64,000 bases of DNA from Planctomycetota bacterium (lineage in GTDB: Bacteria > Planctomycetota > PLA2 > JAEUHO01), in NCBI GenBank assembly GCA_050248855.1, contig JBFWRP010000005.1:8389-72388 (forward strand), given 5' to 3'. The notes beneath the pieces were generated by a model that did not search any database, had not been told where the DNA came from, and saw nothing but the letters and a program-made list of their open reading frames with translations. Below are positions 44,329-46,984 of the stretch, piece by piece. The position numbers were made by a program, and so were the translations under genes. Position 1 is the first letter of the stretch. Every line of letters begins with the position of its first letter.

Positions 44329-46770
44329 ATGGCCGCACGATCCACCTCTGCCGCCGCGAGCAAGAGCCGCGCGCGGACCCGTAGTCCTGCCGTCGAGGCG
44401 GAGCCCATCGGCCTCGAGCTGATCGGCTTGGCCCTCGGTCTGGCCTCCTTGCTGTTGTTGGCGGCATTGGCGACCCAGGCTCCCGCGTCCGCGGGCGGGG
44501 GCTGGCGCAACGCCGTCGGAGCGACGGGTCGCGTGGTCGCGCAGGCGCTGACGGGGGCGCTGGGCCTCGGGGCGCTGGCCGCACCGATCTTCGGCCTGAC
44601 CTGGGCGATCGCCTGCCTGCGCGGGCGGCCGCCTGGACGCTGGGCGCTCAAGGCCGCCCTGCTGCCCGTCGCGATGGCCCTCGTGGCCGTGCTGGCGGCC
44701 CTGCTCTTCGAGCGGCTGCACCTGCCGGGCGTCGACCGCTACGGACCCGGGGGCTACTTCGGCCTCGCGCTGGGCACCGCGCTGTATGACGTGATCGGAC
44801 CGTCCTCGAGCCTCGTGCTCGCCGTCGGTCTGCTCGCGGTCGGGGCGTTGCTCGTGGACTTGTCCATCTCCGGCGTCGCGCGGGGCGTCCTGTCCCGCGC
44901 CGGCTCCCCGTCCACCGCGAAGACCTCGCGCAAGGCCAAGCCGCGCCGCGCTCGCGAGGCCGACGAAGTCACGAGCGAAGACGAGACGTGGGACGACGCG
45001 GAGGACGAGGACGAGGAGGGCGACGAGGAGTACGACGAGGACGAGTACGAAGACGACGAGGAGTGGGACGAGGAGGACGAAGACGACGAGGAGGACGAGG
45101 ACGACGAGGCGGAGGCCGAGGACGACGACGATCCCGCGCGTGCGGAGGCGGCGGCCCGGCGGGCCGCGGCCCGCGAGCGCCGCGAGCTGCCTCCGGTCCC
45201 CCGCGACAAGAAGCCCTGGAAGCCCAAGGGCAAGTACGTCCCGCCCCCCATCGAGCTCCTGGCCTGCGGCAAGTCCGTCGAGGAGGCCAACGTCAAGGAG
45301 GAGGTCGAGGCCCGCGCCGACACCCTCGAGGAGACGCTCCGGGCCTTCCGGATCGAGGCCAAGGTGGTCAGCTACCGCCGCGGCCCGGTCATCACGTTCT
45401 ACGAGGTCCAGGTGCCGCCGGGCGTGGCGGGCAGCCAGGTCGCCAAGCGCGCCGACGACATCGGCCGGGCGCTCAAGGTCGGCAAGGTCCGCGTCGTCAC
45501 GAACATGCGCGGCTTGGACACGATCGGCATCGAGGTAGGCAACGAGCAGCGCGACGACGTGACGCTGCGTGACTTGCTCGAGGAGTCGGGGCCCAAGATC
45601 GACCGTCTCGAGATCCCGCTGCTGCTCGGCCGCGACACGTCGGGACGCCCCGTCGTGGAGGATCTGGCCAAGATGCCGCACTGCTTGATCGCAGGCGCCA
45701 CGGGCGCGGGCAAGAGCGTGTGCATCAACTCCGTGCTGCAGTCGATCCTGTTCACGCGCGGGCCCGACGAGGTCAACCTGATCCTCGTGGACCCCAAGCA
45801 GGTCGAGCTGGCCTCCTACGAGGGCATCCCGCACTTGGCCACGGGCGTCGAGACCGACCCCAAGCGGGCCGGCAAGATCCTGCAGTGGGCCGTGGAGCGG
45901 ATGGAGGAGCGCTACCACCAGCTCAAGTGCACGGGCGTGCGCAACGTCAAGGGCTACAACGACCTGCCCGCGGCCCGGCGCGCAGCCTCCCGCGAGCGCC
46001 ACGGGATGGACGAGGAGACGCTGCCCGACCGCCTGCCCTACATCGTGATCGTGGTCGACGAAATGGCCGACCTCATCATGACGGGCGGCAAGGACGTCGA
46101 GCTGGCCATCACCCGCTTGGCGCAGAAGAGCCGCGCGGTCGGCATCCACCTGATCCTGGCCACGCAGCGCCCCGAGCGCACCGTCATCACGGGCCTCATC
46201 AAGGCCAACATGCCGACGCGCATCGCCTTCACCGTGTCGAGCAAGCTCGACAGCCGCGTCGTGCTCGACCAGAACGGCGCCGAGGCCCTGCTCGGCATGG
46301 GCGACATGCTCTTCCTCTCGCCGCGCAGCATGTTCCCGATCCGCGGCCAGGGCGCGCTGGTCACCGACGACGAGGTGCTCGAGGTCGTGCAGGACCTCAA
46401 GAACAAGTACCCGGACGTCGAGTACCAGGACCTGCTCAAGCAGCAGCAACAGACGCAGGGCGATCCCATGGCCCGCGACGAGCTCTACAACGACGCCGTG
46501 CGGCTCGTGCTCTCCAAGAAGCTCGGTAGCGCCAGCATGCTCCAGCGCTGCATGGGCATCGGCTACACACGGGCCTCGCGGCTCATCGAGATGATGGAGG
46601 AGCAGGGCGTGGTGGGCCCCCACCAGGGCAGCAAGGCGCGCGAGCTCTACGTGGACCTGGACGAGTGGGAGGCCGACCTGGCCGCCCGCGGCCCGGCCGA
46701 GAGCCCGGAAGGCCCGACGGCCGAGTACGACCACGACGACCCGCCCGCCGTCGACACCAGCTGGGACTAG
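44329..46770 (+). CDS. ftsK: DNA translocase FtsK
   Basis: N-terminal 4-TM domain. Long acidic linker. Motor with Walker A GATGAGKS and Walker B VVDEMADL. C-terminal gamma winged helix SASMLQRCMGIGYTRASRLIEMMEEQGVVGP. 813 aa. Confidence 0.9.
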   Translation: MAARSTSAAASKSRARTRSPAVEAEPIGLELIGLALGLASLLLLAALATQAPASAGGGWRNAVGATGRVVAQALTGALGLGALAAPIFGLTWAIACLRGRPPGRWALKAALLPVAMALVAVLAALLFERLHLPGVDRYGPGGYFGLALGTALYDVIGPSSSLVLAVGLLAVGALLVDLSISGVARGVLSRAGSPSTAKTSRKAKPRRAREADEVTSEDETWDDAEDEDEEGDEEYDEDEYEDDEEWDEEDEDDEEDEDDEAEAEDDDDPARAEAAARRAAARERRELPPVPRDKKPWKPKGKYVPPPIELLACGKSVEEANVKEEVEARADTLEETLRAFRIEAKVVSYRRGPVITFYEVQVPPGVAGSQVAKRADDIGRALKVGKVRVVTNMRGLDTIGIEVGNEQRDDVTLRDLLEESGPKIDRLEIPLLLGRDTSGRPVVEDLAKMPHCLIAGATGAGKSVCINSVLQSILFTRGPDEVNLILVDPKQVELASYEGIPHLATGVETDPKRAGKILQWAVERMEERYHQLKCTGVRNVKGYNDLPAARRAASRERHGMDEETLPDRLPYIVIVVDEMADLIMTGGKDVELAITRLAQKSRAVGIHLILATQRPERTVITGLIKANMPTRIAFTVSSKLDSRVVLDQNGAEALLGMGDMLFLSPRSMFPIRGQGALVTDDEVLEVVQDLKNKYPDVEYQDLLKQQQQTQGDPMARDELYNDAVRLVLSKKLGSASMLQRCMGIGYTRASRLIEMMEEQGVVGPHQGSKARELYVDLDEWEADLAARGPAESPEGPTAEYDHDDPPAVDTSWD
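44995..45135. repeat. Low-complexity GAN/GAG acidic coding tract (D/E run in the FtsK linker)
   Basis: Encodes DAEDEDEEGDEEYDEDEYEDDEEWDEEDEDDEEDEDDEAEAEDDDD. Confidence 0.7.
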
Positions 46771-46984
46771 AGGTGTCGCTACTGCCCGGCGTGGGGAGGT
46801 GCGGCTCGCCAGATGCTCGGCCGCGCACCACCATCGGCTCCTCGAGTGAACAGACCACGAGTCGTCGCCGATGGTGGCGCGCTGCCGTCGCCCTGACGAC
46901 CCGATCCGCGTCGTAGGCCCAGAAGGCCGGGCCCACGCGGACTCGGCCACGAAGATCCGCCCGCCGTCGACACTAGCTGGGACT
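46741..46984. mobile_element. 188-bp structured repeat element flanked by a 28-bp direct duplication of the ftsK 3-prime end (putative MITE-like insertion)
   Basis: DR1 at 46741-46768 is ccgcccgccgtcgacaccagctgggact. DR2 at 46957-46984 is ccgcccgccgtcgacactagctgggact (27/28). The interior carries the reverse-complement core ggctcgccagatgctcggcc and the 30-mer shared with 18518-18550, flanked by the inverted repeat caccaccatcggc...gccgatggtggcg. Confidence 0.65.

Follow-up and report, generated by a model that had tools for sequence, protein, structure and literature searches.

A dispersed, structured intergenic repeat behind gene ends in Planctomycetota, bracketed by a duplicated gene end at ftsK

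The 3' end of ftsK is present twice in a Planctomycetota bacterium, and the two copies bracket a non-coding element of 173 nt. This element is a member of a multi-copy, hairpin-forming repeat family of Planctomycetota. We analysed it in a stretch of 64,000 nt with a G+C content of 71.6% (positions 8,389 to 72,388 of the forward strand of contig JBFWRP010000005.1, assembly GCA_050248855.1), called here the window. The copies of the family lie behind gene ends, in the orientation of the upstream gene, and keep a common secondary structure. In the favoured account, a non-autonomous structured repeat entered at the end of ftsK and produced a target duplication of unusual length. We give this account a probability of about 0.5. 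The related loci are named by handles (L001, L002 and so on).

The duplicated ftsK gene end

A repeat search of the window finds a direct repeat of 41 nt with 90% identity (46728-46768 and 46944-46984) and a spacing of 216 nt. Extended through the stop codon, it measures 43 nt and has five mismatches (copy 1/copy 2: A/G, C/A, C/T, C/T, A/G). The initial annotation had described an inner 28-mer (46741-46768). It is found again once, at 46957-46984, with one mismatch, and 100 dinucleotide-preserving shuffles give an expectation of 0.00. This observation was right, and the repeat is larger. The same 28 nt had also been taken for the last 28 nt of the gene, stop included. Those nucleotides (46743-46770 and 46959-46986) differ at two positions, ACC to ACT and TAG to TGG. 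Copy 2 is in frame with copy 1, since 216 nt are 72 codons, and an in-frame TGA is present at 46894.

The shuffles rule out a chance origin. An assembly artefact is rejected as well, because independent assemblies (the window, L001 from ENA and L098 from NCBI GCA_020638895.1) share the arrangement. The initial annotation had also considered a longer tandem duplication. Around the site, Tandem Repeats Finder reports no longer tandem array, and the covariance model of the family (R1) finds no second element after copy 2. Upstream of 46728 the repeat has no significant extension in the window (p=0.27). In L001 the extension is marginal (p=0.027) and non-collinear.

The two copies evolve differently. 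The window and L001 have a DNA identity of about 85% overall and of 70% at the four-fold degenerate sites of ftsK. Copy 1 differs between them at one position, and the change is synonymous. It is the functional gene end, where strong purifying selection maintains the tail DDPPAVDTSWD. Orthologues with as little as about 62% identity keep the C-terminal motif Y-D-x-D-D-P-P-x-V-D-x-S-W-D of FtsK. Between copy 1 and copy 2 there are five differences in the window and four in L001, and about half of these changes would be non-synonymous. In the window, its stop codon has become TGG. In L001 and L098, copy 2 reads GRDDPPAVDTSWD and ends in TAG. This pattern of changes, together with the lost stop, identifies copy 2 as an untranslated remnant, which evolves like non-coding DNA. 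The arrangement is old, because it is fixed in two species at about 85% DNA identity.

The hairpin is more conserved than either measure of divergence. Its 102 nt are identical at 101 positions between the window and L001, and the whole 259-nt segment is about 95% identical between these species. Either a clear constraint on the hairpin or homogenisation between copies accounts for its near-identity.

The inserted element and its structure

The first 31 nt or so of the element (AGGT...GGCGTGGGGAGGTG) precede the core hairpin. A conserved tail (CCGATCCGCGTCG) follows the hairpin, and the last 28 nt or so are specific to the locus. The repeat proper is about 150 nt long. R1 matches it at 46785-46928 with 152.5 bits (E=1.8e-32). 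The core is predicted to fold as a single long hairpin. An internal inverted repeat of 13 bp had been noticed before. It is present, but it forms only the middle of a longer, imperfect inverted repeat whose arms measure 37 nt (Table 1).

An alignment of 33 copies supports this fold. The loop GCTCCTCGAGTG(A)ACAGACCACGAGTCGTCGC and the internal-loop strands GATGCTCGG and CC(G/T)TCGCCC are invariant or nearly so. The stems between these conserved loops vary and covary. The RNAalifold consensus has 27 pairs, 15 of them with compensatory double changes. On the consensus structure 98.4% of the cells pair, against 20-62% when the partner strand is slid. None of 500 shuffles reaches any of the five measures used. 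No covariation that would indicate a pseudoknot, or another pairing of the conserved flanks with loop or stem, was seen by eye, the only means used.

No family of Rfam 15 matches the window at the gathering thresholds. At E<=10 no Rfam match lies over the core hairpin, and two weak sub-threshold matches touch the flanks of the element. An intrinsic (Rho-independent) terminator is rejected, since the hairpin is followed by CCGATCCGCG and by no T/U run. No terminator-like site (a GC-rich hairpin with a T/U run) is present in 46600-47300, and no canonical promoter or terminator is found at the element. An exact-string literature search for three motifs of the element gave no match. The family is apparently undescribed so far.

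A dispersed family

Copies were gathered by scanning one genome per species with the loop motif CRGACCACGAGTCGTCGC. The collection holds about 40 copies from at least five lineages of Planctomycetota metagenome-assembled genomes (MAGs). About 33 of the loci belong to one MAG, HK-STAS-PLAN-1. Further copies come from PL25a_bin.13, Ww498, MO_035.B4 and L081. Where the loop motif matches in other phyla, the rest of the element is absent. Family copies were not found in viral contigs and plasmids.

The window itself contains three to four copies. The initial annotation had stated correctly that motifs of the element recur there: GGCTCGCCAGATGCTCGGCC at 5035-5054(-) and 13291-13310(-), with one mismatch each, and a 30-mer, exactly, at 18528-18557. 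The last belongs to a second full copy, located behind a ParA/MinD-like ATPase gene. A third copy is a variant, and R1 scores its two parts at 33.3 bits (13110-13249) and 11.6 bits (13250-13328). A partial copy completes the set. A further weak R1 match, at 39249-39382, was rejected as a family copy; it is a different TA-flanked palindromic repeat.

Several loci illustrate how copies can be arranged. Three paralogous Porin_O_P genes (L032 1-1536, L060 6481-7602 and L074, contig JACKGW010000011.1) end in ...RFQWQLAL and a stop. In each case an identical junction leads into the hairpin element, and a GC hairpin (GGGCCGTCGCGACGATGTCGCGGCGGCCC) comes after it. This identical junction indicates that the element was duplicated along with the gene. 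In L028 (2270-2600), the element and its 3' flank form a tandem duplication with a 131-nt period. In L041 (477-620), a partial copy is directly followed by a full copy.

Position behind gene ends

The copies have a fixed place relative to the gene on their 5' side. In about 27 of the 29 copies with a clear coding open reading frame (ORF) upstream, this ORF is co-oriented with the element, and its stop lies 69-89 nt 5' of the loop anchor. The upstream ORF was defined as a same-strand ORF of coding-like composition, and the distance allows for internal insertions in variant copies. Two family copies follow tRNA-Lys and tRNA-Met with the same spacing as behind stops. The upstream genes are unrelated housekeeping genes, with C-termini that resemble thioredoxin reductase, ornithine carbamoyltransferase and others; the porin paralogues are confirmed by Pfam.

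Conversely, the orientation of the downstream gene is random (15 co-directional, 13 convergent), so the only feature to which the element is tied is the 3' end of the gene that precedes it. If orientation were random, co-orientation in all 15 tandem contexts would have a probability of about 3e-5.

The upstream stop is TAG in about 24 of about 27 cases, often in the context TAGGT. We considered TAG as a signature of the family. It is not a strong one, because TAG ends about half of the genes in this lineage, and stop codons differ between the window and L002 in two of the eight genes compared. In one of these, rpoZ, the stop differs without any insertion.

The ftsK site in relatives

FtsK homologues with 98, 91, 88, 85, 78 and 78% identity were traced to their contigs. 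In L001 and L098 (FtsK 98%), copy 1, element and copy 2 are arranged as in the window. L081 (FtsK 91%) has a genuine copy of the family (96.8 bits), whose distance from the TAG is exactly that in the window. This copy belongs to another subfamily, with the loop GTG-GCAGACC and different stems. L002 (FtsK 88%) and L082 (FtsK 85%) have a single tail ending in TGA, then about 100 and about 70 nt, respectively, and then the same downstream gene as the window. L083 (FtsK 78%) has a single tail with TGA, no element and a different downstream gene. Finally, L084 (FtsK 78%) ends in TGA and has an unrelated tandem repeat in the place of the element (5440-5900, about 2.3 units of about 190 nt). R1 gives no match in the intergenic regions downstream of ftsK in L002, L082 and L083.

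The element is thus present at the ftsK site in four lineages or assemblies and absent from three. The initial annotation had proposed a search for empty sites, and L002 and L082 are such sites. An arrangement shared by all relatives, considered there as the sign of an ancient fixed feature, is not observed. The stop codon is TAG at the occupied sites and TGA at the three element-free sites and in L084. A metagenome scan with a degenerate ftsK-tail pattern returned only three unrelated matches.

Some details of these sites are recorded here. The Thr codon of copy 2 in L001 is ACG, as in L002, L082 and L084, and that of copy 1 is ACC. The four bases past copy 2 (CCGG) match L002, which is a weak match. 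The L082 spacer (3510-3577) includes an 11-mer, TCGAGTGGCAG, with the same sequence as the loop of one subfamily (rough p about 0.01), where R1 finds nothing. It could be a relic of a lost element or due to chance, and we treat it as an unconfirmed hint. In L001 (7505-7725), and also in L098, an element of about 215 nt with long terminal inverted repeats (GGTGCCTGATTCCGCGCTGCGGAGC ... GCTCCGCAGCGCCGGATCAGGCACC) immediately follows the pseudo-stop of copy 2; the window lacks this element. Two short-read contigs with the same ftsK, L099 and L100, end inside the hairpin element (...GCCGCGCAC), which is consistent with assembly breaks at a multi-copy repeat.

The parA-like site also differs between relatives. 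The window and L090 have an orthologous copy of the element in common. Its place is taken by another, TA-flanked palindrome in L088 and in six further related contigs. Homology between the two arrangements ends at the last sense codon (GGA TGA vs GGG TAG).

Origin of the arrangement at ftsK

In the favoured account, a family copy would have inserted right behind the ftsK stop in the common ancestor of the window species and the species of L001 and L098. The 5' junction would lie at the stop codon, which holds for nearly all copies of the family, and the 3' end would have been attached about 43 nt further upstream on the target. Such an upstream join would duplicate the last 13 codons and the stop of ftsK, and the insertion would have been completed in one event, via a long staggered join. 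Afterwards the upstream copy would have stayed the real gene end, while the downstream copy decayed untranslated. Long and variable duplications have a precedent in IS1549 and IS1634, which give direct repeats of 8-514 bp (PMC2266710).

The strict orientation, the position and the conservation of the element suggest that it is most likely co-transcribed with ftsK as its 3' untranslated region. The 102-nt hairpin might then act at the RNA level as a 3'-end structure. It could affect stability, processing or termination, or offer a protein-binding platform through its invariant loops. The mobility of the family is suggested by its distribution. The initial annotation had read the site as the footprint of a mobile or recombination-inserted element. 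The dispersed family and the element-free relatives agree with this reading. However, no transposase or recombinase has been identified in the 8-kb blocks around the copies, and the insertion is old rather than recent. Its second proposal, a replacement gene end carried by the element as cargo, is disfavoured, because no other family copy has ftsK-tail sequence.

Several observations weigh against the favoured account. The duplication is not a trait of the family. We scored the upstream against the downstream flank for each of 40 copies, with mismatched pairs as the null. Flank similarity is far above the null only in the two copies at ftsK sites (window and L001). Two matches are just over the 99th percentile of the null: a 15-mer in L009, which falls within the next gene, and an 18-nt match within the tandem duplication of L028. 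In L044, a match of 24 nt is above the 95th percentile only. The other approximately 38 copies have no duplicated upstream gene end. The unusually long target duplication proposed earlier therefore fits the ftsK site but does not extend to the rest of the family. With one duplicated locus in about 40, the duplication may not stem from the insertion mechanism. Across the family no general target duplication, long or short, was found, and neither TA flanks nor 3'-extension motifs occur consistently. Clear terminal inverted repeats are missing, as is a short target duplication of fixed length. No transposase, recombinase or integrase was found in the 8-kb blocks around the copies; the immediate neighbours are ordinary housekeeping genes. 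In L081, a second tail copy is undetectable in the 230 nt before the contig end. The non-core part of the insertion, including copy 2, is 89% identical between the window and L001, against 70% at the four-fold sites, which simple neutral decay does not predict. Finally, G-U pairs are about as rare as A-C mismatches. This rarity does not allow a choice between a fold in RNA, in single-stranded DNA or in both strands.

The first alternative separates the two events. The element would have inserted cleanly, and a local event would later have copied the last 43 nt or so of ftsK to its far side. Replication could have slipped or switched template across the hairpin, or tail and element could have been duplicated in tandem (216 nt) with subsequent loss of the second hairpin. 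The duplication would then be uninformative about how the family inserts. The single tail detected in L081, behind an element at the same distance from the TAG, fits this course at least as well as the favoured one. The lack of flanking duplications at the other copies also speaks for it. The 131-nt tandem duplication of L028 demonstrates that local duplications around these hairpins occur. Nevertheless, two events, or one complex event, are needed. Neither a second-element remnant (by R1) nor an array (by Tandem Repeats Finder) follows copy 2. Moreover, the L081 element is of a different subfamily and may be an independent insertion. We consider this course possible, if somewhat unlikely.

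A second alternative is site-specific integration with a replacement gene end, of the type of e14 in icd. Copy 1 would be partly element-borne, copy 2 would be the displaced original end, and nearly all of the element would later have been deleted. Integration of e14 leaves a 163-bp icd' pseudo-copy (PMC6379469). Imperfect 3'-end repeats, a restored ORF and a displaced pseudo-end are the classical signature of such events. The contrast between TAG at occupied and TGA at element-free sites points the same way, and so does the ACG codon that copy 2 of L001 shares with the relatives. Two copies lie beside tRNA genes, which are typical integrase targets. On the other hand, merely 173 non-coding nt separate the repeats, without an integrase. 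The interior is a repeat that occurs after about 40 unrelated genes, and at none of these are there duplications resembling attachment (att) sites. The stop of copy 2 in L001 is TAG, not TGA, and the rpoZ comparison reveals that stop codons also change without insertion. We consider such an integration improbable.

In the last alternative, the repeat is a cis-acting signal of the host, active in 3'-end RNA or single-stranded DNA, and was spread by segmental duplication, gene conversion and recombination between lineages. At ftsK, a donor made of tail and element would have entered by homology-facilitated illegitimate recombination, its left side pairing with homologous sequence and its right side being joined illegitimately. 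The near-identity of the hairpin against the divergence at four-fold sites would agree with a host function, as would the conservation of the whole 259-nt segment above the genomic average and the strict orientation to the upstream gene. The porin paralogues, with their identical junction, indicate that the element can travel with genes. Subfamilies are genome-specific, which suggests concerted evolution. However, about 40 unrelated gene ends, tRNAs included, at the same spacing are left unexplained. Wobble pairs have no strand asymmetry, and the required upstream crossover is not visible. This explanation seems quite improbable.

A more general model can be formulated, which we hold to be speculative and unlikely. 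The family would be a gene-end-homing, non-autonomous element of a new kind, whose invariant loops make it recognisable as a folded single strand (RNA or DNA). It would be positioned precisely, and in the same orientation, at the 3' boundaries of genes, whether stop codons or the 3' ends of tRNAs, and the host would retain it as a 3'-end RNA module. The ftsK site would then preserve its joining chemistry, with a 5' junction that is precise at the gene end and a 3' junction that is imprecise and able to duplicate tens of target bases.

Neighbouring genes and other repeats

Table 1. Coordinates of the features discussed, in the window
Feature	Position	Strand	Remarks
ftsK	44311-46770	+	819 aa from MAARSTS...; stop TAG 46768-46770; mechanical ORF start 44203
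Copy 1	46728-46770	+	functional ftsK 3' end; last 13 codons and TAG
Inserted non-coding element	46771-46943	+	173 nt; absent from L002, L082 and L083
Core imperfect hairpin	46802-46903	+	102 nt; 37-nt arms 46802-46838 and 46867-46903; predicted single long hairpin
Terminal loop	46839-46866	+	28 nt, TCCTCGAGTGAACAGACCACGAGTCGTC
Copy 2	46944-46986	+	untranslated ftsK pseudo-end; would read GHEDPPAVDTSWDW; TAG to TGG
Downstream gene	47164-49134	+	membrane protein; FtsK_gamma-like C-terminus (weak); conserved ftsK neighbour
Second full family copy	18474-18618	+	R1 125.5 bits; directly after the TGA of the ParA/MinD-like ATPase gene 17340-18467
Third family copy, variant	13110-13328	-	about 100 nt extra inside the terminal loop; BLAST finds two halves
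Partial copy	4973-5072	-	5' arm GGCTCGCCAGATGCTCGG only (near 5029-5066), fused to another palindromic repeat; R1 12.6 bits, E=0.46

The ftsK product has Pfam matches to FtsK_4TM, FtsK_alpha, FtsK_SpoIIIE and FtsK_gamma, and is 98% identical to P0001/P0241. The conserved C-terminal motif closes an extension beyond the gamma domain (46686-46767, residues ~793-819), which is seen in Planctomycetota orthologues. A long linker rich in Asp and Glu lies upstream of this extension.

The downstream gene is syntenic with ftsK in L001, L002, L082 and L098. The initial annotation had called its product a motor-less FtsK paralogue. The C-terminus does resemble FtsK_gamma, but with 24.3 bits the match is below the Pfam cut-off of 30.6, so the label is only plausible. 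Both genes have the same reading frame over 46768-47166, with two stops between them (TAG 46768 and TGA 46894). This common frame is probably a coincidence in GC-rich DNA. Just 5' of the downstream gene start there is a C-rich hairpin (47097-47151, GGGGCGACTCCCCCCCTGTTCCGTGGGGGAGTCGTCC), whose 3' part is recognisable in L001, L002 and L082. As a 6C RNA it gives a weak, sub-threshold match (20.9 bits, E=1.9).

Several repeat families crowd the first bases after stop codons in these genomes. A second palindrome family is near-perfect and long, TA-CGGAGGCGGGGATTTCTTCCGCA...TGCGGAAGAATTCCCCGCCTCCG-TA. It occurs at 13395-13545 in the window, at 3575-3720 in L088 and also in L089 and L091-L095, and its TA flanks resemble those of miniature inverted-repeat transposable elements (MITEs) of the IS630/Tc1 type. 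The third palindrome family (...CGGAGTCGGGTGAGATTCCAACC...GGTTGGAATCTCACCCGACTCCG...) is also TA-flanked. Its copies in the window are located at 39265-39362 and at about 4905-5005, one of them about 20 nt past a TAG stop. GGGACGAGCCGGGTGAGAT, which is related to this third family, adjoins several hairpin elements at HK-STAS-PLAN-1 loci.

Significance

If this reading is true, an uncultured Planctomycetota lineage carries an apparently undescribed structured repeat. Three traits distinguish it: hairpin identity of 101/102 against a 30% difference at silent sites, covariation of textbook level, and a fixed place behind genes and tRNAs. With this combination, the family may serve as a 3'-end RNA signal or may be a mobile element aimed at gene ends; neither kind is described for the phylum in the literature searched. 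The ftsK copy would be the only one that keeps a trace of its joining to the target, and it would illustrate how an essential, conserved protein tail survives such an event. For annotation, the family accounts for contig breaks (L099, L100) and for pseudo gene ends downstream of real ones.

Comparison with known systems

The family resembles the repetitive extragenic palindromes (REPs) and REPINs, which have been reported in Planctomycetes. It is multi-copy, non-coding and GC-rich, lies near gene ends and keeps its palindromic hairpin by compensatory changes. GTAG REPs supply TAG stops to flanking ORFs (PMC3733652), and many family copies likewise begin with TAGGT at the stop codon. However, REPs have 20-40 nt and a GTAG/CGTC tag at the stem foot. 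Here the hairpin has 102 nt, and the TAG(GT) is about 31 nt upstream of the stem foot, so the family is not a REP by this test. Unlike REPs, it conserves the loop and the internal loops most, and its stems vary. REPINs are inverted pairs; here each copy stands alone and strictly follows the orientation of the upstream gene. No RAYT (HUH) gene turned up in the 8-kb blocks around the copies.

MITEs such as ERIC/IRU, Correia and RUP are a second comparison. They have about 100-180 nt and one long hairpin, are dispersed in intergenic regions and non-autonomous, and are co-transcribed with their neighbours. The many dispersed copies of our family, and the differences in presence between relatives at the ftsK and parA sites, fit this class. 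The same genomes hold classical TA-flanked palindromic MITEs right after stops (window 39265-39362 and the parA locus of L088). Nevertheless, conservation in the family continues beyond the inverted repeat, for about 31 nt on the 5' side and about 12 nt on the 3' side, and the ends (AGGT.../GGGGTGCG vs CCGATGCGTGGCGG) are not inverted copies. A fixed short target duplication is absent, and a TA at the 3' boundary is inconsistent. The terminal loop is asymmetric and invariant, and the strict gene-end position includes two tRNA genes.

The integrations of e14 and phage 21 in icd, and the islands in tRNA 3' ends, share with the ftsK site an imperfect 3'-end repeat of an essential gene with the frame preserved and a displaced pseudo-end (PMC6379469). 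They differ in what lies between the repeats: in the window, L001 and L098 there are 173 non-coding nt, without integrase or cargo, and other family copies lack the duplication. Likewise, IS1634 and IS1549 have direct repeats of the target far longer than the usual 2-14 bp. In contrast, they are DDE insertion sequences of 1.5-2 kb and have terminal inverted repeats, whereas the element at ftsK encodes no transposase, and only one copy in about 40 has a long repeat.

Other systems are rejected. Integron attC sites are excluded, as the R''/R' core sites (RYYYAAC ... GTTRRRY) are missing, the stem ends in CGGCTCGCCAG / CTGACGAGCCG, and the copies are scattered behind housekeeping genes and tRNAs and form no cassette arrays. 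The mismatches are not confined to template adenines, as in a diversity-generating retroelement, and the neighbours are ftsK and an FtsK_gamma-like membrane protein. A dif/Xer site and a hammerhead are rejected on sequence; the CUGANGA-like CTGACGA of the element covaries with its partner strand.

The family is therefore best placed as a structured, gene-end-associated intergenic repeat with partial likeness to REPs and MITEs. The duplication at ftsK stands alone as a trace of how the repeat was joined to a target, or of a later rearrangement.

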